This document shows positions 37,963 to 57,171 of a stretch of 64,000 nucleotides of DNA, one piece after another (the stretch's first letter is position 1; every line of letters begins with the position of its first letter). Source of the DNA: Gemmatimonas sp. (GTDB lineage: Bacteria > Gemmatimonadota > Gemmatimonadetes > Gemmatimonadales > Gemmatimonadaceae); the NCBI GenBank assembly GCA_031414535.1, contig JANNVQ010000017.1, forward strand, positions 1-64,000, given 5' to 3'. A program made the translations under genes and the position numbers. The notes under the pieces were generated by a model. That model worked only from the letters and a program-made list of their open reading frames with translations. It was not told the origin of the DNA and made no database searches.

Positions 37963-40900
37963 ATGACCGTACCCGCCTCACCCTCATTCCGACTCCACAC
38001 GCTCGGCACGGCGACGCTCGAGCGCCGCGACGACGCTGGCACCTGGGAGGTGGTGATGCGCGCGAGCAAGCCGCTTGCGCTGCTGGTGTATCTCGCCACG
38101 GTCGCCGGGCGCTCACTCTCGCGCGAACAGCTGGCCGACTCGCTCTGGGGCGACGAATCGCCTGAGCGCGCCCGCGCCTCGCTGCGTCAGGCCATTTACG
38201 CGCTCAAGCAGGTAATCGGAGAGGAGGTACTGCAGAGCGAGCGCGAAGTGGTGGTGCTCCGCGAAGGCGCCATCGAATGCGATCGCGATGCCTTTGTCGC
38301 CGCCATGCGGCGCAATGATTTGGACACGATGCTGTCCGTGTATCACGGGGCCTTCTGCGATTCGCTCACGGTGGGTGGTGCCACGGAGTACGATCGCTGG
38401 ATGCGGGCTGAGCGCTCACACCTGGAGCGCCTCCTGCTTGATCGCGCGCAAAGCGTGGTGGCGGCACGCATCGCGGCGGGAGAGGGCGATTCCGCGCTGG
38501 TGGCGGCTCGTGCACTTGAACGACATCTCGCCGACCGCAGCGAGGTCCAGGTGTTGCTCTTTGACGCGCTGGTGGCCTCAGGAGGGAGGCTCGAGGCGGT
38601 GCAGCGGCTTTCGGCGCACGCCTCTCAGCTCTCCTCGCAGGAACTGTCCATTCCCCCGCAGATTGCCGAACGCATCGCGCGCGTGCGGCGGGCCGCACTC
38701 GAGACGCCAGCACCGTCCAGTAATTCCCTCAGTTCCATTGGCGAGCATCTGATTGGCCGCGATTCCCTGCTCGGGGAACTCTCGCGCGAGGCAGAAGCGG
38801 CGCGCGGCGGCGGCGCCCGCCGTGTGATTCTGAACGGACCAGCTGGCGTAGGCAAGACCCGTGTGCTGGATGAACTGGAAGCGCGCCTCCGGCTTCGCGG
38901 CGCCCGTGTGGTGCGCGCCGGTTTATTGCCGAGTATGCAGGATGTCGAGAACTCGGCGCTAGTGGAAGTCGTGCGCGCGGTCTGCGATCTCCCGGGTGCG
39001 TTGGGCGTGTCGGAGCAGTCGGCACGGCGCCTGGTTCGCGTACTGCCAGAGTTGCGGACCCGCTTTCCGGGTGTGCCACGCGATTCGCAGTTGGGATCGG
39101 ATGACATTCGTGCACTGCAGGTTGCTGTGTCGGATCTGCTCGCCTCGGTATCCGAGGAACGCCTGGTCGTACTGATGCTCGACAACGTGCATCACGCTGA
39201 TGTGGCGTCTTTGCAGGTGATGATTGGCACACAGATTCATCCAAAGAGCCGCCTGCTCCAGTTGTGGACCTCGCGCAGCGGACGGGAGTACACGAGTGAT
39301 TCTGGCACGTCGGTCATTGATGTGCTCCCGCTCGCCGAGCCGGACGTGGTTGCGCTGCTCTCTGCGGTGGCTCGGGTGCCGGATGAGCCGTGGATGCATG
39401 GACTCGCGGCGGCGCTCTACCGCCGTTCGCGCGGGGTGCCGCTCTTAGTGCTGGCGGCCATCCGTTCATTAGGTGCAGCCGGACTGCTGCGCATCTCACA
39501 GGGCATGTGGACCAGCGAGCGCCCGGAGGCACTGCTGCAAATGGCGAACGCCACGGCGGGCACCGGCGCTCTGGTTGCTGGCGTGGATGCCGTGTCGCGC
39601 TTGGCACTTGAGGTGCTGGCGGCGTGGGGTCGGCCGATGGAGGAGCGCGACCTGCTCGGAACCCTGGCATTCGCGGCGCGCGCGGTAGGGATGGACGAAT
39701 GGCGCGCGTGCCTTCGCCGCCTCGAATCGCTGGGTCTCGTACAGTCCCGCGACGTGAACTGGGCCATCGCCCACGACACGGTGGCAGATGAGTTGCGCGC
39801 CACGCCTTCCACGGTACTCAACGACGCGCCGCGCGAGCTCTTGTTCGCGTACTGGAGTGCTCCCACCAGACTCACGGTGAACGCGTTCGAGCAGCTGGCC
39901 CTGCTCACCGGGCAAGAGGCCTCGCCCATGATGGCCTTACGTCTCGCACGCGTGGCCCAGAAGCTGCCGCGCTTCTCCGATGCTGGGCTCCGCGGCCGTG
40001 AGCTCACGCGACGCATTGCTCGGCAGTCTGGTCATCCGGAGTGGGAACGCGATATTTCACATGGGATTGGCTTTTTTGCGCGGCAATCGGACGGGACGCG
40101 CTTTGCGTTGGCAGTGGTGATGACCTTTGCGCTCATGGGACTCTCTGTCCTCGCGGTGCAACTGCAGCCGCGCATCGTGATTGAGAGTGTCCCGATGGCG
40201 GAGCAAAGCCGAGAAGGTGAGGCAGCGGAATTCGTAGTCCAGCCGCGCGTGCGCATTGCGGACGGTTTTGGGAGGGCGAGCGAGCTCGAGGTACCCGTGC
40301 GGGTGACCGTGGACCACGGCCGCCTTGTTGGTGAAACGCTACGCAAGACAGAGAAGGGGCGACTGCAATTCGAGAGCGTGGCCTTGATACGTGGCCCGTC
40401 GCGGTCCGATGGACGCCCTGTGCATGTGCACTTTGAAGGACCCTGGTACGTTCGTCCAGCAACCACGGAGATTCCAGGCCTCAGTACCGCGTACACCCGC
40501 GATGGATTTCGCATCGTGGCGCTCACGGCTAACGGAGTCCCCGTCGGGGATGACTTCGTTGTGAGCGTGAAGGTGCGGGATTCGATTCGCTTTGACTTGG
40601 CCTTCGAGTATACGACCGGAATGCCAACGGCCAATTACATTCTTGGGGCGATGCCTACTTGGGGGAGGCGGGAGCAGAGTGCCATTCGACTGGCTGGACT
40701 CCCACGCCCCGTCGTGAATGCCTGGCGCTGGGTGACCTTTGCTGTTCCACCACTTGGACGCCCCGGTGAGGAGTACGTGCTGATTCTGATGGACGCCGAA
40801 GACACGGTGGACCATATGTTCTCGAGCACCAGTTGGCAGGCGGGCGCTCCACGCTGGAATGATGGGAATGATCTCGTTGATCTTGGGCGGGAGTTCTTTG

Positions 40901-41085
40901 AGGACCTGCGGCGGTCCGGGACGGCAGTTGCCGAAGGCCAAGCACGCGCACTGTACTCCAAACAGCAAGGAGGGTACCGCGTGGGTGATCAGGTGGTACT
41001 CAGAGACAAACGGGATTCTGCCGCTTACACGATCCCACGCGTCATCACCGGTCGCGCCGTGCTGGTGCGCTTTACCGAGAACTGA
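37963..41085 (+). CDS. SARP-type regulator: wHTH + BTAD + P-loop ATPase + TM helix + extracytoplasmic domain
   Basis: ALLVYLA...SREQLA..LW....ARASLRQAIY; GPAGVGKT; VLMLDNVHHAD; RSRGVPL; TM FALAVVMTFALMGLSVLAV. Confidence 0.85.
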   Translation: MTVPASPSFRLHTLGTATLERRDDAGTWEVVMRASKPLALLVYLATVAGRSLSREQLADSLWGDESPERARASLRQAIYALKQVIGEEVLQSEREVVVLREGAIECDRDAFVAAMRRNDLDTMLSVYHGAFCDSLTVGGATEYDRWMRAERSHLERLLLDRAQSVVAARIAAGEGDSALVAARALERHLADRSEVQVLLFDALVASGGRLEAVQRLSAHASQLSSQELSIPPQIAERIARVRRAALETPAPSSNSLSSIGEHLIGRDSLLGELSREAEAARGGGARRVILNGPAGVGKTRVLDELEARLRLRGARVVRAGLLPSMQDVENSALVEVVRAVCDLPGALGVSEQSARRLVRVLPELRTRFPGVPRDSQLGSDDIRALQVAVSDLLASVSEERLVVLMLDNVHHADVASLQVMIGTQIHPKSRLLQLWTSRSGREYTSDSGTSVIDVLPLAEPDVVALLSAVARVPDEPWMHGLAAALYRRSRGVPLLVLAAIRSLGAAGLLRISQGMWTSERPEALLQMANATAGTGALVAGVDAVSRLALEVLAAWGRPMEERDLLGTLAFAARAVGMDEWRACLRRLESLGLVQSRDVNWAIAHDTVADELRATPSTVLNDAPRELLFAYWSAPTRLTVNAFEQLALLTGQEASPMMALRLARVAQKLPRFSDAGLRGRELTRRIARQSGHPEWERDISHGIGFFARQSDGTRFALAVVMTFALMGLSVLAVQLQPRIVIESVPMAEQSREGEAAEFVVQPRVRIADGFGRASELEVPVRVTVDHGRLVGETLRKTEKGRLQFESVALIRGPSRSDGRPVHVHFEGPWYVRPATTEIPGLSTAYTRDGFRIVALTANGVPVGDDFVVSVKVRDSIRFDLAFEYTTGMPTANYILGAMPTWGRREQSAIRLAGLPRPVVNAWRWVTFAVPPLGRPGEEYVLILMDAEDTVDHMFSSTSWQAGAPRWNDGNDLVDLGREFFEDLRRSGTAVAEGQARALYSKQQGGYRVGDQVVLRDKRDSAAYTIPRVITGRAVLVRFTEN

Positions 41086-41100: not shown

Positions 41101-41859
41101 CTACCACTCCGGGGTCGCGAGTCCCTGCAGCAGGGGCCGCGCAAACCGATAACCTTGAAAGAGCCGAATGCCCATTTCGCGCAGGACCTGGACCTCTTCG
41201 TCCACTTCGACACCCTCCGCGATCACCGTGATGCCTAAATCGCGGCAAGTCTGCACTGTGCCGGCGATAATGGCGCGCCGCGTGCGATCCTGGTGAATGT
41301 TGCGGATGAGCGCCATGTCGAGCTTGATGAGATCCGGCTCAAAGTCCGCGAGCAACGAGAGGCCGGCGTAGCCGGCACCGAAATCATCGATGGCGGTTTT
41401 GAATCCCTGGCGTTTGTACTCAGCGAAAATGCCTTTTAGATGCGCGCGGTCGCCCACGGGTTCGGCTTCGTTCACTTCGAAGATGATCTGCGACGTGGGG
41501 AATCCAAGTTCCGTCGCGGCCTCGAGTGTGACCCGGATGCAGGTTTCTGGACGGTAGACGGCGTTGGGCAGAAAGTTGATGGATACCGGCACCGTCATGC
41601 CGACCCTGGACGCCTCGGTGATGGCCGTGACGCGCGCCGCTTGATCGAAGCGGTAGCGGTTCTGGTCGTTCACCTTAGCGAGCACGTCCGCGGCTCCCGA
41701 GCCATCGGCTCCACGTACCAGGGCCTCGTGCGCAAAAATCGTCCGTGTCTCCACGTCCACAATGGGCTGGAAGGCCATTGTGATCTCGAAGTCGAGCCCG
41801 GCGCCATCTCGGCAGGCTTTACAGGTGAGATGCGGGGGGAGGGCGGGGAGCGCAGGCAC
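41101..41859 (-). CDS. Stand-alone EAL domain protein (c-di-GMP phosphodiesterase)
   Basis: AFQPIV, EALVR, SINF, IFEV.E, DDFGAGY, IKLD, AEGVE, FQGY. Confidence 0.93.
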   Translation of the reverse strand: MPALPALPPHLTCKACRDGAGLDFEITMAFQPIVDVETRTIFAHEALVRGADGSGAADVLAKVNDQNRYRFDQAARVTAITEASRVGMTVPVSINFLPNAVYRPETCIRVTLEAATELGFPTSQIIFEVNEAEPVGDRAHLKGIFAEYKRQGFKTAIDDFGAGYAGLSLLADFEPDLIKLDMALIRNIHQDRTRRAIIAGTVQTCRDLGITVIAEGVEVDEEVQVLREMGIRLFQGYRFARPLLQGLATPEW

Positions 41860-41871
41860 GGTTAGAAAGGT

Positions 41872-42023
41872 GGACGGATGACGGATGATGGATGACGGAA
41901 TGAACGGCTATGTGAAAAGATATCCGCAAGGGCTCCCGACCGCTCGCCGGAGCGCGTCCGAAGCCTCAGGCCAGAGATTAGATTTGTCCTGAGCATTTCG
42001 CATCCGTCTTCCGTCATCCGTCC
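41872..42023. repeat. 7-mer inverted-repeat element with ~100-nt spacer between the EAL gene and glyQS
   Basis: gacggat gacggat gatggat gacggaa at 41873-41900; atccgtc ttccgtc atccgtc at 42002-42022. Confidence 0.85.
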
Positions 42024-42026
42024 CCC

Positions 42027-43400
42027 ATGCGCCCCGACGTCCTCGAATCCCTCGTCAGCCTAGCCAAGCGCCGCGGCTTCGTCTTCCAGTCCTCCGAGAT
42101 CTACGGTGGTACCGGATCGGTGTGGGATTACGGGCCACTGGGCGTAGAGCTCAAGAATAACGTCAAAGCGCGGTGGTGGAATGCGATGGTCCGCGAGCGC
42201 GATGACGTGGAGGGTCTCGACGCCGCCATCTTGATGCATCCGCGCGTGTGGGAAGCCTCGGGCCACGTATCCGGCTTCTCCGACCCGCTCATCGATTGCA
42301 AGGCCTGCAAGGCCCGGTTCCGCGCCGACAAAATTGCCGACGCGCAATGCGCGCGGAAGCCGAGCAAGAAGCCGGGCGAGCACACGGATTGTCAGCTCAC
42401 CGAGCCGCGCCAGTTCAACTTGATGTTCAAGACCTTTATGGGCCCCGTCGAGGAATCGGCGTCGGTGGTGTATCTGCGTCCCGAGACGGCGCAGGGCATT
42501 TTCGTGAACTTCTTGAATGTGCAGCAGGCCACGCGTCAGAAGGTGCCGTTTGGCATCGCGCAGATTGGCAAGGCGTTCCGCAACGAGATCACGCCCGGAA
42601 ACTTTACGTTTCGCACGCGTGAGTTCGAGCAGATGGAGATGCAGTTCTTCGTGGAGCCAGGCACGGACATGGAGCACTTCGAGCGCTGGAAGCAGGCGCG
42701 CCTCGATTGGCACCTATCGCTCGGCCTCGATCGCGACCGCTTGGAGTTCCATCAGCACTCGGAAAAGGAACTCGCGCACTACGCGCGCGCGGCCTTCGAC
42801 ATCAACTTCGATTTTGGTGGCACGCTCGGCTTCCAGGAAATCGAAGGCGTGCACAACCGCAGCGACTTCGATCTCAAGCAGCACCAGGAGTTCAGCACCA
42901 AGAAACTCGAGTACGTGGATCAGGCGGCGAATAAGCGCTACTTGCCGTATGTGATTGAGACTTCGGTCGGTGCCGACCGCGTCACACTGGCCATCATGGT
43001 GAATGCGCTGCGTGAGGAGGCCGTCCCGGGTGAGACGGAAGGCCGTACGGTGATGGGATTTCATCCGGTACTGGCACCCATCAAGGCGGGCGTGTTCCCG
43101 CTCACCAAGAAGGACGGACAGCCGGAGATGGCCGAGAAGCTCGGCGCGGCGCTGCGCAAGAAGTTCAACGTGTTCTACGACGAGGCCGGCGCCATTGGCC
43201 GTCGGTATCGTCGGCAGGACGAAGCGGGCACACCCTTCGGCATCACGATTGACAGCGACTCCACCGCCAACAACGACGTGACGATTCGCTTCCGCGACAA
43301 CATGGGGCAGATTCGCGTGTCGACGGATCAGGTGATTGACGTGCTGACCAAGTATCTCGAGGCCGATCATCAGACGGCTGATTCCTCACTGGTGGGCTGA
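42027..43400 (+). CDS. glyQS: Glycine--tRNA ligase, homodimeric type
   Basis: [43 protein letters not shown]. Confidence 0.97.
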
Positions 43401-43404
43401 GAGA

Positions 43405-44985
43405 GTGGCGACGACACGCACGACCGAGGCGGCTGCGGCGGGCGATTCGATTGCGCAGTTACGCATCCGTGGCGAGGCATTTCTCGAGGCCATCTCCAAG
43501 GAGTACCACGCCGCTTACGCGGGCCTCAAGCCGCAGCCGGCCATTCAACCCATCTACGCTGCGCACGCGGCGGCGTACGGCGATGAGGCTTTTTCCCAAG
43601 CGCTGGAGCTCTTTCAGAAGTCTGCGGGAGCAACGAGCGCGTCGGCATTCGGCGAGTCCAGCGCCGCCGCTACTCTGCGGTCCTCGCGCTTGCTCCTCGA
43701 TTGGCTGCTTGAGTCGCGGGTTGGACGCGAACTGGCCTCACTCGATGAGCGTGAGATTGCGTGGGAAAATTCCGCGCTCATCTCGCTCCCGGATGGCAAC
43801 AAAGAGCCCTACCAGCGCGTGCCCATTACACTCGGCAACACGCGGGACGCGAAGCAGCGACACGCGATAGACGATGCACGCGCCGCGTTGGTGCTGGCGG
43901 AGCTTGCACCGATGCGCCAGGAGAAGCTGGAGCGCGAGCACGAGGTGGTGCAGGGCTTGGGCATCGCCCCCACATACACCGCCACGTGGGAAGCCTTGAG
44001 CGGCATCTCGCTCGCAGACCTGCGAGTGGAGTGCGAGCAGTTCCTGCGGGACACGCAAGACATGTGGAATGAACTCTTCCCGGAGTTCTTAAAGCGTGGG
44101 CTCGGCATCACCCCGGCCGAGGCGACCCGCGCCGATGTGGCGGCCTTGATGCGGGCCCCAGAGTTTGACGAGTACTTCACCGCTGAGGCGATGGAGCGCG
44201 AAGTGCGCCGCCAGGTGACGGAGATGGGTATTTCGCCGGATGCGGAAGGCCGCGTGCGCTACGACACCGGAGAGCGTGAAGGCAAGCGACCGCGCGCCTT
44301 CTGTGCGCCAGTGCGCATTCCTGATGTAGTGCATCTCGTGCTGCGCCCGCACGGCGGCCAGAACGACTGGATGACCTTACTGCATGAGCTTGGCCACGCG
44401 CTACACTTCGCCAATATGCGCAGCAGCTTACCGTTTGAGTTGCGGTGGCTGGGCGACAACTCGGTGACCGAAGGCTATGCGATGCTCTTCGATCATCGCC
44501 TGAAGGATCGTGGGTGGCTCGCGCGCTACTCCGGGCTCGACAAGAAGTCGTTGCCGTCCTTCCTGCGCTATATGGGCTTCGAAGAGTTGCACTTCGTGCG
44601 CCGCTACTGCGCCAAGCTCATCTACGAAACCGAACTTCACGCGGGCTCCGTGTCTTGGCAGTCGCTGCCGGACTTGTACGTCGAGACCCTCACGGCAGCT
44701 ACGGGCTTCCGCTATCAGCGCAGCGATGCCTTCGTGGACGTGGATGCGCGCTATTACGCCGCGCGCTATCTGCGGGCGTGGCAGCTGCAGGCCGTGCTCG
44801 ATGAATCTTTGCGTGACCGCTTCAACGAAGACTGGTGGCGCAATCCCAACGCCGGGCCGTGGATGGTGGAAGAGCTCTTCGCTCACGGGCAGACGGAGCT
44901 GGCGCACGAGCAAGCCAAGCGCGTGGCAGGCAAGGGATTGTCATTTGCGCCGGTCATTGCCGGCATTGAACGCATGCTGGGCTGA
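43405..44985 (+). CDS. Zincin metallopeptidase (M3/gluzincin-like)
   Basis: GKRPRAFC, LLHELGHALH, downstream SVTEGYA. Confidence 0.75.
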   Translation: MATTRTTEAAAAGDSIAQLRIRGEAFLEAISKEYHAAYAGLKPQPAIQPIYAAHAAAYGDEAFSQALELFQKSAGATSASAFGESSAAATLRSSRLLLDWLLESRVGRELASLDEREIAWENSALISLPDGNKEPYQRVPITLGNTRDAKQRHAIDDARAALVLAELAPMRQEKLEREHEVVQGLGIAPTYTATWEALSGISLADLRVECEQFLRDTQDMWNELFPEFLKRGLGITPAEATRADVAALMRAPEFDEYFTAEAMEREVRRQVTEMGISPDAEGRVRYDTGEREGKRPRAFCAPVRIPDVVHLVLRPHGGQNDWMTLLHELGHALHFANMRSSLPFELRWLGDNSVTEGYAMLFDHRLKDRGWLARYSGLDKKSLPSFLRYMGFEELHFVRRYCAKLIYETELHAGSVSWQSLPDLYVETLTAATGFRYQRSDAFVDVDARYYAARYLRAWQLQAVLDESLRDRFNEDWWRNPNAGPWMVEELFAHGQTELAHEQAKRVAGKGLSFAPVIAGIERMLG

Positions 44986-44988
44986 ACG

Positions 44989-45834
44989 ATGAGCAGCGTC
45001 TACTTGAACGGCCGCTTCGTACCGAAGGGCGAAGCAATGATCTCGGTGGAAGACCGCGGCTTCATCTTCGGCGATGGCATCTACGAAGTGGTGCGCGCCA
45101 TCGAGGGTCAGCTCTTTGCTTGGGACGCGCACGCAGTGCGCATGGCCAACGGCCTCGCCGGGCTGCGTATTGATGCCGCTGGCACCGAAGGCTTGAAGGG
45201 CGTCTGCGAGCAATTGCTGCGCGACAACTCGCTCACGACGGGCGAAGCGACCGTGTATTTGCAGATCAGTCGCGGCACCGCGCCACGGACGCATCACTTT
45301 CCGCCCGCTGGTACGGCGACGACCATCTACGCCGCAGCCTCGCGCTTCACGCCCAACATGGTGATGCGTACCAAGGGGGCGAAGGGCATCACGCATCCGG
45401 ACCAGCGCTGGGCCCGCTGCGACTTGAAGACTGTGAACCTCCTTGGCCCCGTGATGGCGCGCCAAGCCGCGGTTGAGGCCGGTGCCTACGAAGCCATCAT
45501 GCATCGCGACGGCATGATTACCGAAGGCGCGGCCACCAATTGCTTCATCGTGCTCGATGGCGTGCTCCGCACCTATCCGCTCTCCAACTACATCCTGCCG
45601 GGCATCACGCGGGCGGTGTTGATGGAGATGATCCGCGCCGAGGGTATGCGCTGCGAGGAGCGCCCGGTGCCGCTGGTTGAGCTGCACCGCGCGGAGGAGA
45701 TCTTTGTGTGCGGCACGACGACGGACGTGCAGGCTATCGTCACGCTCGACGAGCGCCCTGTGGGCACGGGAAGCGTTGGCCCGATTACCGCAACGCTCCG
45801 TGATCTGCTGGCGCGCCGCCTCTACGGTCACTGA
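44989..45834 (+). CDS. Class IV aminotransferase (D-amino-acid transaminase-like)
   Basis: DRGFIFGDGIYEV, RW.RCDLKTVNL, TEG..TN, ILPGITR. Confidence 0.92.
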   Translation: MSSVYLNGRFVPKGEAMISVEDRGFIFGDGIYEVVRAIEGQLFAWDAHAVRMANGLAGLRIDAAGTEGLKGVCEQLLRDNSLTTGEATVYLQISRGTAPRTHHFPPAGTATTIYAAASRFTPNMVMRTKGAKGITHPDQRWARCDLKTVNLLGPVMARQAAVEAGAYEAIMHRDGMITEGAATNCFIVLDGVLRTYPLSNYILPGITRAVLMEMIRAEGMRCEERPVPLVELHRAEEIFVCGTTTDVQAIVTLDERPVGTGSVGPITATLRDLLARRLYGH

Positions 45835-45848
45835 GAGCCAGGCCGCGC

Positions 45849-46490
45849 GTGCCCCGTCGCAGGCGCTGGCAACTGCCCGATCCACCCGTGGCCGCGGTGG
45901 CTACTGACCCGGCGCCGAAGGTGGTGGCTGAGATTGTCCACGCATTGGTTCGCGCCGATAGCTCTGCCGAGGCTTACCAGTTTGCACTGGACCGCGCCTG
46001 CCCAGTCGTTGGGGCCTCACTGGGCGCGGTGTTCCTCCTCGATGGGGCTGCTGAGGTGATGCGTCCTGTAGCCGCCCACGCTTGGCCGGAGCGGATGCGT
46101 CCTTGGCTCGGGGAGATGCGGGTGCGGCTGGGTTTTGGCCCCGCCGGCGAGGCAGCCGCCGAGCGGCGACTCATTGAGACGCCGGATGTGTTTGGTGATC
46201 CCGGCCTCGAGGATTGGGCCGAGGTGGCACAGGAACTGGGTTTCCGGGGCATTGTATCGCTGCCCATCATGGGCGCCGAGGGATTGGCGGGGGCGGCGAG
46301 CTTTTACTTCGACACGCCAGGACCCCGTCCAGCCGCTGCCAAGGACCTGATGCGCACCGTGGCCGACCTCCTCGCCGCAATTCATGAGATGGACCTGCTG
46401 CGCCGTCGGCTGAGGCTCGCCGAGGCCGCACTTGAGGATGAACGATCGGCGTCGCCAAAGCGTAGAGACATCGAAGCAACCGACCAGTAG
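45849..46490 (+). CDS. Stand-alone GAF domain protein
   Basis: GAVFLLD, G.GPAG.A, DVF.DP, LGFR.IVSLPI; C-terminal coiled coil. Confidence 0.8.
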   Translation: MPRRRRWQLPDPPVAAVATDPAPKVVAEIVHALVRADSSAEAYQFALDRACPVVGASLGAVFLLDGAAEVMRPVAAHAWPERMRPWLGEMRVRLGFGPAGEAAAERRLIETPDVFGDPGLEDWAEVAQELGFRGIVSLPIMGAEGLAGAASFYFDTPGPRPAAAKDLMRTVADLLAAIHEMDLLRRRLRLAEAALEDERSASPKRRDIEATDQ

Positions 46491-46533
46491 ATTTCAGGTG
46501 TCATACCGACACCTTCTTGGAGATGCCCCGCAC

Positions 46534-46842
46534 GTGACACGCCATCAGCAGTCCGGTCGCACACTGCAGCAGCAGCGCACCGTGATGTCCGCCGCCGACG
46601 TCCTTGAGCACGCTCGCGAGTTCTTCTCGCGTCGCTCGGGCATCTACGCGGCGTTTCTCGAGAAGCAGGGTCCGAACTGGATGAGCCTCCGCGGCCAGGG
46701 CGGCGAAGAAATTGCCATCGCCGCAACCGAGGAAGCCGGCTCCACCTCCGTGAGCGCGTCGAGCTACATGTTCGATGCGCAGGTCGCGCAGTTCCTGGCG
46801 TCGTTGCCGCCCGCCGGCGAGACCGCAGGAACCGTCGCATGA
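46534..46842 (+). CDS. Hypothetical small protein
   Basis: High-GC3 codon usage, GGAG before GTG 46534, ATGA overlap with the next gene; start uncertain. Confidence 0.7.
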   Translation: MTRHQQSGRTLQQQRTVMSAADVLEHAREFFSRRSGIYAAFLEKQGPNWMSLRGQGGEEIAIAATEEAGSTSVSASSYMFDAQVAQFLASLPPAGETAGTVA

Positions 46843-47162
46843 ACGACGTCTTGAATGGGCTGCGCGCTCGCCCCGGGGTGTTGGCACTCGGCGCCACCGC
46901 GGAGAACGCCATCACCGTGCGTGTGCAGATGACGGAGCTCTGGGACACGCTCGCCGTGCGTTGCGCGCCCGACACCTCGGTGCGTGCGCTTAAGCAAGCG
47001 GCGCTCGACACCTTCATGCCAATCCATCAGCCCACGGCGGACTTCGTGATGAAGCTGCGCGGCTTTGAAGTGTTGGATGAAGCCGCCCCGCTCACCGTGG
47101 CCGGTGCGCGCGATGGCAGCACCTTCCTGCTCTCCTACCGCTTTCGCCGGCCCGTCCGCTGA
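46839..47162 (+). CDS. Ubiquitin-like (beta-grasp) protein
   Basis: By-eye alignment to ubiquitin over about 75 residues; no C-terminal GG. Confidence 0.65.
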   Translation: MNDVLNGLRARPGVLALGATAENAITVRVQMTELWDTLAVRCAPDTSVRALKQAALDTFMPIHQPTADFVMKLRGFEVLDEAAPLTVAGARDGSTFLLSYRFRRPVR

Positions 47163-48178
47163 GCGCTGCTGCCGCCACTCCGCGCCCTGATCGCGACGCT
47201 CTGCTCTCGGCGGCGCGGTCGTTGCGCGCTGAAGTGGGGAAGCGCATCGTGGGGCAGGAAGCCGTACTCGATGAAATCTTGATGGCGCTGGTGGCCGGTG
47301 GCCACGCCCTGCTCGTGGGCGTGCCTGGCCTCGCGAAGACTTTGATGATTCGCTCGGTTGCCGAGGCGATGGCCTTGGACTTCCGGCGCATCCAGTTCAC
47401 GCCGGACCTCGTGCCGAGCGATATCACCGGCACGGAGTTGCTTGAGGAAGACACGCAGACGGGGCACCGCGCGTTCCGCTTCGTGCGTGGACCGGTGTTC
47501 GCCAACATAGTGCTCGCGGACGAAATCAATCGTGCGCCGCCACGCACGCAGGCCGCGCTGCTCGAGGCCATGCAGGAACATCGCGTCACGGCCGCCGGTG
47601 AGACGATGTCGCTGCCCGAGCCCTTCTTCGTGCTCGCCACGCAAAATCCCATCGAGCAGGAAGGCACGTACCCGCTGCCGGAGGCCCAGCTCGACCGCTT
47701 TCTCTTCGACATTCGCATTGGGTATCCCGATGCCGAGGATGAAGTGGCCATTCTGCGCGCCACCACCGGAGTGAGCAACGAAGCGCTCAAGCCCATGCTC
47801 ACGGCGCATCAGGTGCGCGAGTTGCAGCAGATGACGCGCGAGATTGCTGCGGCCGATGCGGCTTTGCGCTACGCGGCGGCACTCGCGCGCGCGACGCGGC
47901 CCAAGGGCGGGGAAGCCACGCCGCTCGTTGAACAGTACGTGCGTTGGGGCGCCGGTCCACGCGCCGGTCAGGCCTTGGTGCTCGGCGCAAAGGCCGCGGC
48001 ATTGCTCGCGGGGCGGCATAACGTCTCACCAGAGGACATTCGTCGCGTCGCCCGTCCGGTGTTGCGGCATCGCGTGCTGCCCAACTTCGCCGCCGAAGCC
48101 GAGGGCGTGAGTGCCGAACGCATCGTGGACGATTTGATTGAGCGCGTGGCTGAGCCGCGCGGCCTCACCGGGATCTAG
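47159..48178 (+). CDS. MoxR-family AAA+ ATPase
   Basis: IVGQ, GVPGLAKT, RIQFTPDLVPSDITG, LADEINRAPP.TQAALLEAMQE, TQNPIEQEGTYPLPEAQLDRF; start either CTG 47159 or TTG 47222. Confidence 0.95.
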   Translation: MSAAAATPRPDRDALLSAARSLRAEVGKRIVGQEAVLDEILMALVAGGHALLVGVPGLAKTLMIRSVAEAMALDFRRIQFTPDLVPSDITGTELLEEDTQTGHRAFRFVRGPVFANIVLADEINRAPPRTQAALLEAMQEHRVTAAGETMSLPEPFFVLATQNPIEQEGTYPLPEAQLDRFLFDIRIGYPDAEDEVAILRATTGVSNEALKPMLTAHQVRELQQMTREIAAADAALRYAAALARATRPKGGEATPLVEQYVRWGAGPRAGQALVLGAKAAALLAGRHNVSPEDIRRVARPVLRHRVLPNFAAEAEGVSAERIVDDLIERVAEPRGLTGI

Positions 48179-48180
48179 CG

Positions 48181-49032
48181 ATGCCGGTCGGCCCGTACGG
48201 CGCGCTGCTCGACGCCGTGCGCGGCGTTCGTTGGCCTGCGCGCCGTCCCGTGCCGCAGGGGGCGCCGGGTGCGCATCAAGCGCGTTCGCGTGGCGCGGCG
48301 CCGGAGTTCGCGGAGTATCGCCCGTATCGCCAAGGCGATGATCCCAAGCGCCTTGATTGGAAACTGCTCGCGCGCTCTGATCGTGCGTTCATTCGCTTGG
48401 CACCTGACCACTCGGTGCTCGGCACCACGTTTCTCGTGGACGCCTCTGCCTCAATGGATTTTGCGGCTAAGTGGACGCTCGCCAAGCGTCTCGTGATTGG
48501 ACTCGCCGCGGCGGCGCACGCCGGGTCTGATCCTGTGGGACTGACGCTTGTGTCCGGTGAGGCGACGCGCCGGCTTGAGCCACGTACGAGGCAAGGAGTG
48601 GTCGGTGACATTGCCCGCTTGCTCGGCACGGCCAAGCCGAACGGCGCTGCGGCGCTGGCGGACGCGGTGGCGACCGCGGCACCGCGCTGCGCCGTCCTCA
48701 CCGACTGCCTCGGCGACGTGGACGCACTGCGCACGTCGCTCGCGCGACATTTGGTGAAGGGCGGCGAGGCGTATCTCGTACACGTGGTTGCGGCAGCGGA
48801 ACTGAATCCCGGTGATGCGCCCATGCTCGCCACCGATCCCGAGGATGCGCGCCTGCAGCGTCCGCTCTTTGCAGCCACGCACGAGGGCTACCGCGCGCGA
48901 TTCGATGAGTTTCGCGCTGCGGTTGCCCGTGGGATGCGAAGCGAGGGAGTGCACGTGTTTGAAGTGCGCGATGACGAAGCGGCCGAAACCCTCGTGCGAC
49001 GGATTGCGCGACCCGCGGAGAGCATTCGCTGA
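48181..49032 (+). CDS. DUF58 vWA-domain protein
   Basis: EFAEYRPY..GDD...LDWK..AR, MIDAS DASASM. Confidence 0.92.
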   Translation: MPVGPYGALLDAVRGVRWPARRPVPQGAPGAHQARSRGAAPEFAEYRPYRQGDDPKRLDWKLLARSDRAFIRLAPDHSVLGTTFLVDASASMDFAAKWTLAKRLVIGLAAAAHAGSDPVGLTLVSGEATRRLEPRTRQGVVGDIARLLGTAKPNGAAALADAVATAAPRCAVLTDCLGDVDALRTSLARHLVKGGEAYLVHVVAAAELNPGDAPMLATDPEDARLQRPLFAATHEGYRARFDEFRAAVARGMRSEGVHVFEVRDDEAAETLVRRIARPAESIR

Positions 49033-50285
49033 TGAGCTTCCTCGTTCCGTGGATGTTCGCGGCTGGCATCGTGGCCGCGCTCGGTGTGGTCGCGCTGCAT
49101 CTGCTCTCCACACGTCGTCCTCCCGTGAGCATGCTCCCCACGGCGCGCTTCGTGCCAGAGTCCGATGTGCGGGCGGTGGCCCGTACATCCAAGCCCACGG
49201 ATTTGCTCCTGCTCGCGCTGCGGGCGCTGGCCGTGCTGCTCATTGGACTAGGGTTCGCTCAACCGCTGCCAGATTCACCAGGTCCCAGCGTACGCACGGT
49301 GTTGGCATTGGAGTGGACCACGGCACTCACAGATGCTGAAGCGGCACGCAGCGCGGCGCGCGCTCGATTGGAGGCGGGTGATGCGTTGGTGATCTTTGAT
49401 ACCGCGGCGCGAGTTGTGGATGCGTCTGAGTTGAACGCCTTGGCAACTCCAAGCGTGCGCCGTGCCGCACTCTCACCGATGTACATCGCGGCACGCGATG
49501 CCGCTCGTAGCATCGCAAGAGGCGCGGATTCCTTGCGCTTGGTGGTCGTGAGTGCACACACGGCGGACGCGCGTGACGCGGCCACTCCCGCGTTGGCGGC
49601 CAGTTGGCCAGGTCGAATTGAACGTATCGTGTTGCCTGCCATCGCTGACACGGCTGATTCGCCAGCGGTGCAGGTGTTGCCTGCTGATGCCGACGATGCG
49701 CTCGCGCCCGCGCTCCGTGCGCTACCACGAGCGCGAGGCACTCATCTCGTACGGGTTCAGCGGCGAGACATCACCGCGGTGGATTCGGCATGGCTCAGGG
49801 CGAATGCCGGGTCCGTGCTCGTCCACTGGCCGCGTCGCTTCACGGATAGTGTCCGTGCCGACGGCGTAGCCACGGACGATGGCAATACGCTCGTCGCGCC
49901 TCTCGCGCGTTTGCCTGTGTCCGAAGGCGCTGTGATTGCTCGCTGGCGCGACGGCGCAGCGGCGGTATCTGAGCGCCCTGTTGCCAGCGCCTGCCTACGC
50001 AGCGTAGGCATCGGCTTGCCAGAGTCAGGTGATCTCACGCTGCGCTCGCCCTTTGGCCACTTCCTTGGAAGTCTCGTCTCCCCCTGTGGTGGGCGCCGCG
50101 ATCGAGCGTTGGCGGATTCGCTCTTGGCGTCATCGCGCGACACGCTGCCGCTCGCCTTGGCGTCGGTGCTCGCCGGGGAAGGGAATGAGCGCTCGCCGCT
50201 CACACCCTGGCTGCTTGCTTCGGCGTTGCTCCTGCTCATCGCTGAGCAGATTCTGCGTCGGCGTCTGCCGAAGGCAGGCTCGTGA
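49032..50285 (+). CDS. BatA-N domain membrane protein
   Basis: MSFL.P, LHLL, PT.RF, LLLALR.LA......FAQP; C-terminal TM with E..L. Confidence 0.85.
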   Translation: MSFLVPWMFAAGIVAALGVVALHLLSTRRPPVSMLPTARFVPESDVRAVARTSKPTDLLLLALRALAVLLIGLGFAQPLPDSPGPSVRTVLALEWTTALTDAEAARSAARARLEAGDALVIFDTAARVVDASELNALATPSVRRAALSPMYIAARDAARSIARGADSLRLVVVSAHTADARDAATPALAASWPGRIERIVLPAIADTADSPAVQVLPADADDALAPALRALPRARGTHLVRVQRRDITAVDSAWLRANAGSVLVHWPRRFTDSVRADGVATDDGNTLVAPLARLPVSEGAVIARWRDGAAAVSERPVASACLRSVGIGLPESGDLTLRSPFGHFLGSLVSPCGGRRDRALADSLLASSRDTLPLALASVLAGEGNERSPLTPWLLASALLLLIAEQILRRRLPKAGS

Positions 50286-52357
50286 GCGCTCTCGAGCGAC
50301 TACGTCGCGCCCGCCAGCGGCTCCTCATAGTGCTCGCGGCGCGCGCACTGCTGACAGCTGCTCTCGCAATCATCGCGACCATCCTGTTTGCCCTCGCCGG
50401 GGACGGATTGCTCGGCTGGAGCGCCGACACGCGCCGCGTCGTCGCAATCCTCCCCTGGCTCGTGGGCGCACTCGTGCTCGCCGTGCTGGGCGCGCGTGCC
50501 TACGCCTCCTCGCACGCCGCGACGCACGAGTCCGTCGCGTTATGGTTTGAGAAGCGTATCCCATCGCTGCGGTATGCCCTAGTCACGCGACTCACCGTCG
50601 AACCAGACGCGTTCACTGAGGCGGCGTTGGATCGCGTGATCGCCGAGGCGCCGCTCGAGCGCGAAGTGGCTGTCGCGACGCGTGCATCACTCCTGAAGCC
50701 GGCGCTGGGCTTGCTTGGTGCAGTGGCACTACTGGCCTCGCTACCCGACGGGGCAGTTGGGCGAGTGACCACGCCTCGCGATGGGGATGCGCTTGAGCGT
50801 CCCGGTGCGGCGGCCGCGGCGGCGAGCAATCCGCTGGCCACTATCGTCGTGCGCGTGCAGCCACCAGCGTACGCGGGATTGAGTAGTGAGATCTATGATG
50901 ACCCGGCCACCGTGCAGGCGCTCGCTGGTAGCCGTGTCGTGGTTGAGGGGCTTGGGCGCGGCGTGAGTCTGCAGCGCGAATCCGATGCGCAAATCGCGGA
51001 GTACAGCGGCGAGCGCTGGCGGCTTGCCATACAGGTGCCACCTCGCGCCGAGGCCATGCGGCTCCGGGCCGCAGGACGCGAGCGTGTGCTTGTCATTGAG
51101 CCCATCACGGATTCGGTTCCGCGCGTGCGTCTCAGCCTTCCAGCGCGTGATACCGTCATGCGTGTGGCGAGCGGGGAGCTCGCGCTCGCTGCGTCGCTTG
51201 AGGATGATCTCGGGCTTGCGGACGCCTCGTTCGAACTCATCATCAGCACGGGCGACGGTGAGCTCTATGAGTTCCGCACGCTGCGCGTGGCACTCAAGCG
51301 GTTTGCCACTCCTGAGCGTGAGGCTGTGCTCGAAGGAAGGGTCAATCTTGATTCACTGAATCTCAAGCCTGGCGATCTCATTCACCTGCGAGCGGTGGCG
51401 GCAGACCGCAATGATGTGAACGGCCCCGGGCGCGGTGCGTCCGAGACGCGCACGCTGCGCGTGGCGCGCGCCGATGAGTACGACTCCGTGTCGGTTGATC
51501 CGGCGCCGCCAAGTGAACCGGAGAAGGACGCGCTCTCGCAGCGGATGATTCTCCAGATGACACGCGAGTTGGTGGCGCGCTCGCGCCGCATTGGCGCGGC
51601 GGCCACGACCCGCGACGCGCGACGCATTGCCGTGGACCAGACCAAGCTGCGTCAGCGCGTGGGACAGATTGTGTTCCAGCGCCTCGGCGAGGATGAGGGC
51701 GAGCACCAACACTTCCCCGGCGACGGTCACGCGCACGGGCAGGAAGGCCCCCTCAACCCCGATCAGATTCTTGCTGCCGCGGAGCGCGCAGCCAATGCGG
51801 ATCCCACGCGAAGCCTCGACAACCACGGTGACGAGACGCCTATCGTGGCCATCAACCGACCGCTGCTTGAGGCCTACAACCACATGTGGCGGGCGGCGAC
51901 GGAGTTGGAGACGGGAGCGCCCGCTGCGGCCATCCCGTGGATGGAGCGTGCGATAGCCGCGTTGCAACGCGCGCGTGCCGCTGAGCGCATCTATTTGCGC
52001 GGGCGTCCTCCAAATGTTGTGGTGGACTTAGCACGTGTACGGCTGGCCGGAAAGAACGAGGGAGATCCTACATCTCGCAGTGCCCGGCCCAGTGTTGACC
52101 CGCTACGCGCTGAGCGACTCGCCCGCTTTGATGCGGCACTGACAGTGGTGACGAGCGATGCCGCGGCGGCGGCGGACTCGTTGCTGCTGCTCCGCGTGAC
52201 GCTTCCGGACGAGGAGCGCGCGGCCATCCTGGCACTAGATGCGGCAGCGAACGCGCTGCGCCAGGGCGGGGATGTGACCCTCGTGCTGTCTAACGCGCGC
52301 CGTGCCCTCGTCGCGCAACCGCCACGCCGTTCGTCGCTCGCCGGATGGGGGCTCTAG
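50282..52357 (+). CDS. Membrane-anchored DUF4175-like protein
   Basis: N-terminal TMs, PPAY.G, D..P.V....P, DD.GL, L.PGD......A.D, helical C-terminus. Confidence 0.7.
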   Translation: MSALERLRRARQRLLIVLAARALLTAALAIIATILFALAGDGLLGWSADTRRVVAILPWLVGALVLAVLGARAYASSHAATHESVALWFEKRIPSLRYALVTRLTVEPDAFTEAALDRVIAEAPLEREVAVATRASLLKPALGLLGAVALLASLPDGAVGRVTTPRDGDALERPGAAAAAASNPLATIVVRVQPPAYAGLSSEIYDDPATVQALAGSRVVVEGLGRGVSLQRESDAQIAEYSGERWRLAIQVPPRAEAMRLRAAGRERVLVIEPITDSVPRVRLSLPARDTVMRVASGELALAASLEDDLGLADASFELIISTGDGELYEFRTLRVALKRFATPEREAVLEGRVNLDSLNLKPGDLIHLRAVAADRNDVNGPGRGASETRTLRVARADEYDSVSVDPAPPSEPEKDALSQRMILQMTRELVARSRRIGAAATTRDARRIAVDQTKLRQRVGQIVFQRLGEDEGEHQHFPGDGHAHGQEGPLNPDQILAAAERAANADPTRSLDNHGDETPIVAINRPLLEAYNHMWRAATELETGAPAAAIPWMERAIAALQRARAAERIYLRGRPPNVVVDLARVRLAGKNEGDPTSRSARPSVDPLRAERLARFDAALTVVTSDAAAAADSLLLLRVTLPDEERAAILALDAAANALRQGGDVTLVLSNARRALVAQPPRRSSLAGWGL

Positions 52358-52968
52358 TGGCAGAGTTTGTGTGGGCCACCGCGCAGTATGACAGCGGCGA
52401 CTGGGACAGTGCGCCAATGGTCGCGCCAAATCTCATTGACTCCGTGGCGCGCTACACGACGATTGACGTGGCGCCCACCGGAGTCATTGTCCCGCTTGGC
52501 TCGCGCGATCTGTTTAAGTACCCGTTGGTGTTTCTTACGGGTCACTTGCCGGTGCGCTTCTCGGACGTGGAGCGCAGTACGCTCCGCGAGTACTGCCGGC
52601 GCGGCGGATTGCTGTTTGTGGACGATCACAACCACGACATCGACGGTGAGTTTCATCGGACCGCGTGGGAAGAGATTGCCAAGGCCGTCGCTCCGCTCAA
52701 GGACCTGCGCAACGATCATGAGATCTACCGGAGCTTCTTTACGTTCGCGGACGGGCCGCCCACGACCAGCCATGAGCTCAATGGTTGGGGCGACAATCTC
52801 GTGCACAAGCACCTACAGGCTGTAGAGCGCGACGGCCGCATCTGCGTGCTGTATAGCAGCAAGGACTACGCCTCGGAGTGGAATTACCATCCTGATAACA
52901 AGCGATTCCTCTCGCTCGACAACACACGCTTTGGCGTCAACGTGGTGGTGTATGCGCTCACCCGTTGA
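52357..52968 (+). CDS. DUF4159 family protein
   Basis: Y.SGDW, LF.YP..FLTGH, L.EY...GG.LFVDD, H.IY..FF, GVN.VVYALT; alternative ATG 52345. Confidence 0.85.
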   Translation: MAEFVWATAQYDSGDWDSAPMVAPNLIDSVARYTTIDVAPTGVIVPLGSRDLFKYPLVFLTGHLPVRFSDVERSTLREYCRRGGLLFVDDHNHDIDGEFHRTAWEEIAKAVAPLKDLRNDHEIYRSFFTFADGPPTTSHELNGWGDNLVHKHLQAVERDGRICVLYSSKDYASEWNYHPDNKRFLSLDNTRFGVNVVVYALTR

Positions 52969-54199
52969 GTCGCAACTGCGGCAGTCGCGCCGCGAGGGAT
53001 TGCTGCGTGGCGTGGCCCTCGCCGCACTCGCGGCGGCAACGCTCGTGGCGGCCTGGCTCGCGATGCGCCCTGAAGTCACTGGCCCGCCGGCGCTTCGGGT
53101 GCAGTTCGAGACTCCGCCATCGGCCATCGCAAGGGATTCGCTCGCTGCGCTGGTTCGCGCGGGCCGTACCGTCACGTGGGAAGGAGACCTCGCGCCCTTA
53201 GCCGTGATGGCGGAGCCCGTGCGTGAGCCCGGCACGCGTTGGCGAATCGCGGCCGTGGGCAGCGCGCCGCTCATCGTGCGTGATTCCCTAGGCGTGATTG
53301 ACTCACTCGGGGTGGCATCGGCGCTCACGCTCGAGCCCACGCGCGGACCCGTACAAATTGTGCAGGGCGGTACCCTAGCCTCCGTTGCGCCGCGAGAGAT
53401 CGCGCCCCCGCGCCGCGCCATGGTGCTCGGCCGCGTGGGCTGGGAAGCGCGCTTCATTATTACGGCGCTGGAGGAGGCCGGTTGGAATGTGGACGCGAGG
53501 CTCGCACTCGGGCGCGAGCGTGAGGTGCGTCAAGGCGAGGGCAGCCCACGATTGGAGCGGCACGATGTGGTGATCGTGACCGATTCCACGTCGGCCAATG
53601 CCAGCGCCGCATCGCTCGCGCGCTTCGCGCGTGCTGGTGGTGGGCTCCTCCTTGCTGGCGAAGCAGCGGCGGCGGGAGCTCCGGCCCTGCGCGCAATCAC
53701 GGGCGCGCGCGTGCAGCGCATCGAAGAGCCCGAGACGGAATCCTTCGAAGGCCACGAACCCACGCACGCCCTGCCGCTCTTCGCGCTCAGCGCCATCGCG
53801 AGTGATGCGAGTCTGCTGGAAGACCGCGAAGGCACGCCAGCCATCGTCGCCCGGCGAGTGGAGGCGGGGCGGGTGATGCAGGTGGGCTACGCTGAGACGT
53901 GGCGTTGGCGCATGCAGGGTGAAGGGCGGAGTGTGGAAGAGCATCGCGCGTATTGGTCTCGACTCGCTGGCCTCGTGGCACGCGGTGAAGCGCGACCCGC
54001 CGCGCTCGTGGCCGATGCTCGCGAAGCTGCTCGAGACGCCGCGCCGCTCGCCGCACTCGTACACGCAATTGGCCCGCCGAGCGAAGCTGACGCATCTGCC
54101 GTACGCAACGGACCAACGCTCCCAGCTTGGCTCGGCCCCATCATCTTATTAGCCCTGCTCGCTGAGTGGGGATCACGCCGCCGTAGAGGAGCCCCGTGA
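52952..54199 (+). CDS. Membrane protein with class I GATase-like domain
   Basis: N-terminal TM, WEARFI..AL, GGGLLLAG, GRV.....TWRW, LLAEW..RRRRG. Confidence 0.7.
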   Translation: MRSPVESQLRQSRREGLLRGVALAALAAATLVAAWLAMRPEVTGPPALRVQFETPPSAIARDSLAALVRAGRTVTWEGDLAPLAVMAEPVREPGTRWRIAAVGSAPLIVRDSLGVIDSLGVASALTLEPTRGPVQIVQGGTLASVAPREIAPPRRAMVLGRVGWEARFIITALEEAGWNVDARLALGREREVRQGEGSPRLERHDVVIVTDSTSANASAASLARFARAGGGLLLAGEAAAAGAPALRAITGARVQRIEEPETESFEGHEPTHALPLFALSAIASDASLLEDREGTPAIVARRVEAGRVMQVGYAETWRWRMQGEGRSVEEHRAYWSRLAGLVARGEARPAALVADAREAARDAAPLAALVHAIGPPSEADASAVRNGPTLPAWLGPIILLALLAEWGSRRRRGAP

Positions 54200-55125: not shown

Positions 55126-55135
55126 CTTCTTAGGC

Positions 55136-56182: not shown

Positions 56183-56192
56183 ATTACATCCT

Positions 56193-57170: not shown

Positions 57171-57171
57171 C

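Follow-up and report, generated by a model that had tools for sequence, protein, structure and literature searches.

In this study, a 64,000-nucleotide stretch of Gemmatimonas sp. DNA (assembly GCA_031414535.1, contig JANNVQ010000017.1, positions 1 to 64,000; hereafter the window) was analyzed around a gene encoding a 107-residue ubiquitin-like protein (Ubl; 46839-47162, forward strand), which is directly preceded by a gene for an unnamed protein of 102 residues (gene X; 46534-46842, forward strand). Our preferred reading, to which we give somewhat less than an even chance, is that X and Ubl form a two-protein housekeeping module of the Gemmatimonadales which is independent of MoxR, the Ubl being a non-conjugated, YukD-like adaptor working with X. 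A preliminary description, made without database searches, had rather seen in the Ubl an adaptor of the MoxR AAA+ chaperone encoded downstream. It had given the Ubl sequence correctly (the protein ends with RRPVR), as well as the overlap with the ~100-residue gene upstream (4 bp, ATGA), which it regarded as a small partner; this gene is effectively kept directly 5' of the Ubl gene in relatives. In the text, f1 to f12 and g1 onwards are the labels given by the search tool to families and genera, respectively; f1 is the family of the window and f1-f3 make up its order, the Gemmatimonadales.

The ubiquitin likeness of the protein was examined by structure prediction and profile comparison. The AlphaFold2 (AF2) model (predicted local distance difference test (pLDDT) score 91.2) displayed the beta-grasp order with an extra N-terminal strand proper to this family. 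Ubiquitin-like chains led its 422 Foldseek matches at E<=0.001, and ubiquitin, ISG15, BilA and the Caldiarchaeum ubiquitin were aligned with a TM(target) of about 0.8 at 13-24% identity. The structural Z scores of the top 50 matches ranged from 9.5 to 11.2; ThiS, MoaD and YukD chains were absent from these 50, a scope that does not imply their exclusion. When the family profile (98 rows) was compared with PDB chains, di-ubiquitin (E 1.8e-5), ISG15 (1.4e-4), BilA (0.013) and ubiquilin were retrieved. At E<=0.1, the 98 members matched 22 Pfam families, with YukD (47 members), DUF2604 (42), UBL_UBAC1 (27) and ubiquitin (PF00240, 14) among them and no ThiS/MoaD family. These models and profiles confirm the Ubl as a predicted ubiquitin-type beta-grasp whose likeness is beyond chance, and they agree with the preliminary description, which had expected such a fold and had placed the protein closer to ubiquitin or YukD than to ThiS/MoaD.

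Taken alone, the window Ubl gave two sub-threshold beta-grasp matches in Pfam (PI3K_rbd, E 7e-4; DUF2604, E 6e-3). It scored 17.5 bits with DUF2604 (PF10790, cut-off 25 bits) and had no match with YukD (PF08817, cut-off 27 bits), while its homologue P0480 reached 31 and 28.1 bits, respectively; judged by these scores, membership of DUF2604 appears borderline. In the ESM Atlas, the Ubl retrieved Gemmatimonadota clusters without names together with clusters labelled DUF2604/YukD, and some of its relatives have already been named 'ubiquitin-like domain-containing protein' by NCBI. The closest named homologues belong to the Gemmatimonadaceae, for instance that of Pseudogemmatithrix spongiicola (83% identity).

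The C-terminal tail was then compared with that of ubiquitin. In the profile alignment, K52, K72, G75, R101 and R103 of the Ubl fall in register with K27, Ile44, G47, R72 and R74 of ubiquitin, and R104-P105 occupy the positions of G75-G76. Lys72 (codon at 47052-47054, forward strand) is invariant in the aligned rows (98/98), and an ending of the form R-x-[PA]-[VLIT]-[RK] was found in 81/98, the consensus of the basic tail (47139-47159, forward strand) being RRRRPVR-stop. None of the 98 RRRPVR-type rows terminates with Gly, and GG is likewise absent from the last 8 residues in all 98. The codons of the last residues differ synonymously among relatives and, therefore, selection acts on the peptide; this same variation led us to reject the idea of a tail conserved solely to provide the following gene with a ribosome-binding site. 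E1 enzymes adenylate a C-terminal Gly, and canonical activation needs one (passages of PMC2948915). As the window-type Ubl has no terminal Gly, it would therefore not be conjugated in the usual way, and its sequence supports the view that it is beyond the reach of Gly-chemistry conjugation. The preliminary description had drawn the same conclusion from the missing GG and from a window free of E1, E2 and JAB genes; in agreement with it, a Pfam scan found none of these among the 16 genes at 42027-59445. In the rest of the window genome, the single strong ThiF match is located on contig C49, away from the Ubl contig, and the sole JAB match, on contig C47, is below the cut-off. The E2 models PF14461 and PF00179 had no match in 5 genomes, but the control genomes were also without a match.

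The distribution of both genes was followed in an even draw of 300 genomes of the phylum, each at least 90% complete. The Ubl profile matched 69/71 genomes of f1, 123/125 of f2 and 3/3 of f3, i.e. 195/199 genomes of the order, in single copy in all but one. Matches were also obtained in f6 (23/23) and f5 (1/1), and none in the 77 genomes of f4 and f7-f12. A search with a two-subfamily alignment, run with no positive control, found no Ubl in 29 genomes of f4 and f7-f12 plus the four Ubl-less genomes of f1 and f2. Gene X, used as a single query, was present in 71/71, 123/125 and 3/3 genomes of f1, f2 and f3 (197/199 for the order), and the X profile search extended it to f5, f6 and f8, with weak matches in f7 and f4. 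Four genomes marked unpublished (G085, G123, G181 and G206) are included in the tallies, G181 being one of the 23 genomes without a close MoxR mentioned below. In protein searches beyond the limits of the phylum, all the named matches were Gemmatimonadota.

Gene X was found directly 5' of the Ubl gene in 29/29, 39/39, 10/10 and 79/80 loci, in sets which overlap and whose members are kin rather than independent; the sole X-less locus of the 80 has its start 86 bases away from the end of a contig. A 4-bp overlap was counted in 61/76 pairs, and no Ubl without X was observed in any family searched. Across the two orders in which the Ubl was found, an X-family gene directly before the Ubl gene is the only constant of the neighbourhood.

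Gene X had no match in Pfam, NCBIfam or PADLOC. When 50 X members were submitted to Pfam, no family was matched by more than one of them, a sequence search against the PDB gave nothing under E 0.36, and the ESM Atlas returned solely Gemmatimonadota clusters without names. The AF2 model of the protein (pLDDT 88.7) predicted a beta-alpha-beta4-alpha arrangement, i.e. a KA1/TBP-like fold. Its best fold match was the regulatory domain of CIPK14 (2zfd_B, Z 9.6, root-mean-square deviation (rmsd) 3.1, 89 residues aligned), in the company of the Chk1 KA1 domain (Z 8.9, rmsd 2.4, 82 aligned) and SOS2 (Z 8.6). START/Aha1-like and other TBP-like folds came after the KA1 matches, and the C-terminal domain (residues 85-165) of the Thermus MoaD-related protein 1v8c was found at rank 25 (Z 6.9, rmsd 2.6, 71 aligned).

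In order to sort the X copies, a tree of 53 rows and 102 columns was built from 21 chosen Ubl-adjacent copies of the Gemmatimonadales and the other copies in hand, minus L083; the tree is drawn open and many of its forks are unresolved. A branch with a support of 92/98, called group A, unites the window-type X, with its conserved RGQGGEE loop, and copies located directly before moaD-moaE-moaA in f5, f6 and f8 (7 loci: L071-L075, L099 and L100; in L071 and L072 the copy comes after carA and HU). In the window genome the moaD locus is without X, and for Gemmatimonadales the gene is missing at this locus in the two genomes checked. Group B, set by shared motifs, stands apart from group A in the tree and precedes the Ubl gene in f5 and f6. 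A group B copy is also present in the window genome (L226:5216-5572, reverse strand, contig C19), directly before the genes for 2-oxoacid dehydrogenase E1 alpha/beta and E2, an arrangement seen in 6/7 other Gemmatimonadales loci, one of them without the E1 alpha gene. Heterodimers of A- and B-type X proteins may be imagined, as an idea only.

There are thus three settings in which an X-family gene stands directly before a beta-grasp gene: group A X with the RRRPVR-type Ubl, group B X with a Gly-ended Ubl, and group A X with moaD-moaE-moaA. Furthermore, TBP-like domains are reported to be fused to E1 and to Ubl-E1 proteins (parts of PMC2948915). From these settings, and from the joining of this fold to Ubl and E1 elsewhere, we infer that X is a putative beta-grasp-binding domain of KA1/TBP-like fold. 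In the module that we propose, the Ubl would not be conjugated; it would be a non-covalent adaptor or a structural subunit, as is YukD, described as a permanent non-covalent structural subunit in a portion of PMC12637312, and TmoB, for which excerpts of PMC1779556 and PMC1949818 provide the precedent of a non-conjugated beta-grasp subunit. The basic surface of the Ubl, made of Lys72 and the free RRRPVR tail, would dock on an acidic ligand. The simplest candidate for this ligand is the EKEG/GQGGEE face of X, an acidic third partner being the other possibility, and the X-Ubl pair might then bind a further target. Co-translation of the two proteins, their binding, the role of the tail and the third partner are all conjectural steps of this scheme.

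A sister subfamily of the Ubl, found in f5 and f6, is homologous to that of the window (HHalign 97.6%, E 2.8e-12) and shares with it invariant R, W, K and DE residues; Candidatus Palauibacter is among its named records. A scan with one sister protein, in which 80 of 94 loci were kept (titles: Gemmatimonadota, 'uncultured bacterium' and one Akkermansiaceae), provided the 80 loci cited above, where the gene directly 5' of the Ubl gene in 79 is a group B X. All 80 sister proteins end with Gly, 78 of them as F-x-G, the antepenultimate residue being F or Y and YDLGH being invariant, and 59/60 further homologues are Gly-ended as well. At the place of K72, the sister consensus has Glu. On average, the Ubl carries a net charge of +1.8 in 68 Gemmatimonadales rows versus -6.3 in 8 sister rows, and the loop of X reads GQGGEE beside the basic Ubl versus DRxHGH at the matching place beside the sister Ubl.

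These Gly-ended proteins raise an alternative, in which the ancestral Ubl was an E1-activated modifier or sulfur carrier: the Gly form would be adenylated by the housekeeping MoeB-rhodanese protein, X would be its reader or chaperone, and the RRRPVR form would be a derived decoy or regulator of the MoeB/MoaD relay. MoeB-type activation is known for TtuB, SAMP and Urm1. In the sister subfamily, the C-terminal Gly would offer the site that E1 enzymes adenylate (same passages of PMC2948915), and MoeB was matched in the flanks (up to 4 kb) of 27/80 loci. A moeB-rhodanese gene lies 3.5-6.7 kb 5' of the pair on the same strand in 9/9 f6 genomes in which both positions were available, and the group A copies before moaD in other orders point in the same direction. 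However, two genes of the opposite strand stand between moeB and the f6 pair, the 9 genomes belong to one family, and in f5 the distance is 19 kb. The sister tail extends 7 residues past the register of the ubiquitin Gly and may be a binding peptide instead, the single f6 genome searched for JAB gave no match, and the window Ubl has no Gly to activate. MoaE is present in 146/151 same-order genomes, so that its co-occurrence with the Ubl says nothing. We consider this alternative unlikely, albeit worth keeping in mind.

A dedicated second E1 in f6 was also considered and ruled out, a second divergent ThiF being present in merely 9/24 genomes. One such sporadic ThiF/E1 gene (490 residues; L230:6509-8997, reverse strand, genome G086) is located near a transposase, with genes of 126 and 211 codons directly 5'; by eye, this group resembles a Bil/Bub-type operon.

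A related proposal would make of both subfamilies a core, non-defence ubiquitin-type system of the Gemmatimonadetes, with a eukaryote-like Ubl and, as its reader, a KA1/TBP-like protein. The Gly form would be activated by the housekeeping MoeB and conjugated without a dedicated E2, and the Gemmatimonadales form would have been rewired into a non-covalent adaptor. This rewiring would have reversed the charge of the Ile44 patch, brought in the Arg tail and exchanged the reader for the paralogue that is elsewhere associated with MoaD. We hold such a history to be rather improbable.

Several observations weigh against X and Ubl as a functional module, the reading that we prefer. First, X is not restricted to the pair: in genus g24 it is directly followed by the deacetylase gene with no Ubl between them (loci L037 and L227; no Ubl was found in either genome), X paralogues without a Ubl match exist in f7 and f8, and group B X precedes 2-oxoacid dehydrogenase genes in Gemmatimonadales or a DEAD-box-like gene in f7, with no beta-grasp gene. 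Second, the X copies that accompany the RRRPVR-type and the Gly-ended Ubl, respectively, are on different branches of the tree; the pair is therefore not a simple orthologous unit. Third, the mean net charge of X is nearly the same in Gemmatimonadales (-2.0) and in the sister loci (-1.5), the 1v8c match of X (Z 6.9) is only in the common range, and in 5 genomes no PF09189 (DUF1952) match exceeded the cut-off or fell on an X locus (its control passed in 1/14). Fourth, no full-length X-Ubl fusion was detected among 361 Ubl homologues, in searches mostly limited to proteins of near Ubl length. Finally, the pair belongs to a long, conserved string whose housekeeping genes are unrelated to each other, and its adjacency may therefore be partly an inherited order.

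Two partial fusions were noticed. In L083 (G293), an apparent frameshift puts three quarters of X, counted from its start, into the reading frame of the Ubl, which looks like a sequence or assembly error; in P0299, a third of X is joined to a tail-less Ubl, which looks like a deletion or an assembly chimera. Prediction of the X-Ubl complex with paired alignments (76 rows) scored 0.00 in both runs; the controls were unfolded too, which makes this result uninformative either way.

According to the strongest version of these objections, X and Ubl would be unrelated in function and mere neighbours by inherited order, the Ubl partner being encoded elsewhere. The different X paralogues flanking the two Ubl subfamilies, the occurrence of X without Ubl and the mixed housekeeping genes of the surrounding string are all in line with it. 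On the other hand, all the other neighbours differ between the orders and the X-family gene stays directly upstream; landing by chance beside a paralogue of the former neighbour is unlikely. This explanation is, in our opinion, an improbable one.

The neighbourhood on the 3' side of the pair was examined next. In the window, the Ubl gene is followed by a cassette (47159-54199, forward strand) which encodes, according to Pfam, MoxR (AAA_3), DUF58/vWA, BatA-like, 691-residue, DUF4159 and 422-residue proteins. The MoxR gene overlaps the Ubl stop only if it starts with the CTG at 47159. This start is probably right, because several relatives have a GTG or ATG at the equivalent place, in frame; the overlap announced in the preliminary description is thus probable and depends on this codon. 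Where MoxR is next, it usually starts across the Ubl stop with CTG, GTG or ATG, and the same type of overlap is made by the membrane gene of f2/f3 described below and, in a few loci, by the deacetylase gene.

A first set of 30 loci was collected from 38 matching genomes, 29 of these loci coming from relatives. In the 21 same-genus loci, the Ubl gene is followed by MoxR in 17, by a deacetylase in 3 and by a contig edge in one; in the f2/f3 loci, it is followed in 8/8 by a two-helix membrane gene and then by the deacetylase. In a second set of 40 wider loci, hand-picked to spread over genera, the next gene is MoxR in 12, the deacetylase in 26 and a kinase in 1, and one locus is without Ubl. At the level of genomes, MoxR is next to the Ubl gene in 36/69 of f1 (35 by coordinates, plus G197, whose copy at a contig end was taken from the locus map) and in 15/28 genera of this family. 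Among the remaining f1 genomes, 10 have a close MoxR elsewhere and 23 have none at an identity of at least 68%.

The adaptor role proposed at the outset, by which the Ubl would serve the MoxR AAA+/vWA chaperone as UBX/UBL proteins serve p97, draws on this adjacency with its 4-bp overlap and on a UBX-CDC48 structure (9v9o) among the fold matches, which with a Z of 10.8 is tied with ubiquitin and SUMO. But the cassette is cleanly gone from this place in members of g1, g17, g18, g20 and g34, where the Ubl is intact, and MoxR directly follows the Ubl gene in 0/17 f2/f3 loci examined and was matched within up to 4 kb in 0/80 sister loci. In the ten f2 genomes with a close MoxR, the two genes are on different contigs, and eight genomes of f4, f7 and f8 have close MoxR homologues (68-72%) with no Ubl match. 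The Ubl has its N-terminal extension in genomes devoid of the cassette as well; in G192, this cassette is found 5' of X. As MoxR adjacency is confined to part of f1 and the mismatch goes in both directions, the homologues are largely not linked to MoxR, which is the outcome that the preliminary description itself had said would speak against its proposal. MoxR genes come and go beside X-Ubl and the pair therefore looks like a separate module, not like a chaperone adaptor; the latter is the least probable of the explanations considered here. The 47159-54199 cassette is a variable neighbour inserted between the Ubl and deacetylase genes, outside the module.

The GAF protein, also put forward as a component, did not withstand comparison with relatives. 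The stand-alone GAF gene (45849-46490, forward strand) is a remnant, corresponding to the N-terminal half, of a GAF-HisKA-HATPase kinase of ~450 residues, as shown by Pfam and by the whole gene present at the same place in other genera. This truncated and variable histidine kinase was not found beside X in any f2/f3 locus, nor in L020, L022 and L041 of the same family, and it is outside the module.

The gene for the histone-deacetylase-family enzyme (PF00850; 54196-55125, forward strand) is the usual downstream neighbour of the Ubl gene in the order. It is the next recognised gene in 26/39 Ubl loci of the wider set and 11/29 of the first set, and follows the MoxR cassette in 9/9 long-enough loci of the wider set, so that nearly all Gemmatimonadales loci have it in one of these two positions; in some, it overlaps the Ubl stop. 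The Ubl, with X, could hence be a subunit or targeting adaptor of this enzyme. Against this, the flanks of the 80 Gly-ended loci (up to 4 kb) gave no match with a deacetylase, MoxR or kinase, L057 has the pair without a deacetylase, g24 has deacetylase and X without Ubl, and a 7-kb cassette stands between them in half of one family. We regard such a role as very unlikely. Beside these genes, the f2/f3 membrane gene (e.g. L023:1755-2003) overlaps the Ubl stop in many of these loci and encodes ~85 residues, with membrane helices predicted at two places and an amphipathic stretch on the C-terminal side; its Pfam matches are weak and holin-like, and it could be a further partner in these families.

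Another possible target is RNA or an acidic lipid, to which the basic tail would bind, the pair forming a small RNA-associated module. The Ubl has a free Arg-rich tail and a Lys in place of the hydrophobic patch, and a DEAD-box-like gene is found near group B X in f5, f6 and f7. The METTL16 KA1-type region, which binds RNA, is among the X fold matches (Z 7.2). Similarly, the UBL-RNA structure of SF3A1 (8id2) is among those of the Ubl (Z 10.0), and stem-loop 4 of U1 is a ligand of the tail of this ubiquitin-like domain (part of PMC8833184). However, the sister Ubl is strongly acidic, X is net acidic, and many unrelated structures are tied with these fold matches, which leaves the RNA or lipid target highly improbable. 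These explanations are not all mutually exclusive, and a module of X and Ubl acting together remains the one that we favour.

For the rest of the locus, the genes for glycyl-tRNA synthetase, an M3-like peptidase, a class IV aminotransferase and the GAF protein are located 5' of gene X, and those for CorA, a Ser/Thr kinase and PriA come after the deacetylase gene. The peptidase (43405-44985, 526 residues) is an M3/M32-like metallopeptidase with a HELGH motif, under all family cut-offs, and is kept after glycyl-tRNA synthetase in many relatives. In many Gemmatimonadaceae, a lone gene of the GvpL/GvpF family (L058:6859-7491) is found between the deacetylase and Ser/Thr kinase genes, with equivalents in L036, L042, L043, L044, L056, L059 and L060; no gas vesicle cluster was seen in these loci. 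A scan of 41500-57500 returned 0 promoter-like and 8 terminator-like sites, which is the chance level. Further upstream, a reading frame of 1040 residues (37963-41085) presumably combines, as judged by eye, a transcriptional-activator-like N-terminus, a P-loop and a membrane helix, and adjoins a gene that we take to be EAL-like (41101-41859, reverse strand).

In the sections of the literature cited here, eukaryote-type bacterial ubiquitin folds are found either in sparse conjugation operons (Bil, Bub) or as parts of machines (YukD, TmoB). The Ubl described here behaves as a core gene of an abundant order (195/199 genomes), with opposite tail chemistries in sister orders, and a large set of soil and water bacteria has X and Ubl as adjacent genes. 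Should X bind beta-grasp proteins, it would be a new bacterial Ubl-binding domain and would suggest a possible function for the TBP-like domains found on MoaD and E1. If the Gemmatimonadales form was really rewired, the two subfamilies would document how, in nature, a conjugated modifier became a non-covalent adaptor. If the pair is merely an inherited order, a new Ubl family would still be gained, together with the correction that it is not a MoxR adaptor. As a cultured host exists, P. spongiicola with its 83% identical homologue, these questions are directly testable.

Finally, the pair was compared with known systems. Among the closest is YukD/EsaB (PF08817), which is also a stand-alone bacterial ubiquitin fold without a GG tail and is matched by 47/98 Ubl members at E<=0.1. 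In contrast to it, the present Ubl has no secretion genes among its identified neighbours, ends with a conserved basic or Gly-ended tail, has a KA1/TBP-like partner and belongs to a diderm phylum; WXG100 (PF06013) was found in 0/5 genomes, the control being positive in 3/14, which speaks against type VII secretion. With the Bil/Bub systems (BilA, BubA), it shares a eukaryote-type beta-grasp, the BilA chains 8tyx and 8tyz being among the best fold matches, and the sister Ubl is Gly-ended. Bil/Bub operons contain E1, E2 and usually a peptidase beside the Ubl and are sparsely distributed (parts of 10.1101/2024.11.21.623966), whereas our Ubl is near-universal and single-copy in the order, has no E1 or JAB among identified neighbours and no PADLOC match, and lacks Gly in its window form. 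In the part of PMC7159879 concerned, the sole relevant mention is of conflict systems associated with Ubl conjugation systems. ThiS/MoaD carriers are different: the single PF02597 match of the window genome is a separate moaD on contig C28, and the Ubl is without GG.

The Thermus protein 1V8C, a MoaD-like domain fused to DUF1952, likewise pairs a beta-grasp with a TBP-like fold, and group A X precedes moaD elsewhere; but X and Ubl are separate genes, the beta-grasp is of the ubiquitin type rather than the MoaD type, and PF09189 has no sequence match. The KA1 domains of AMPK/MARK/CIPK kinases are the best fold matches of X (Z 8-9.6; Foldseek E 1.6e-3), from which X differs in being free-standing, at 10-14% identity; the Ser/Thr kinase of the Gemmatimonadaceae string is unmatched in the sister loci. 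As to MoxR-DUF58-BatA (vWA) cassettes, the window block 47159-54199 is an ordinary one, whose link with the Ubl is limited to part of one family. No account of the X-Ubl pair was found in the open literature, searched mostly by titles and abstracts, and supplementary catalogues of bacterial Ubls could list the family. Compared with all these systems, what is new is a Ubl proper to one lineage and almost universal in it, which has an unnamed partner of KA1/TBP-like fold, exists with two tail chemistries and would work in the manner of YukD and TmoB.

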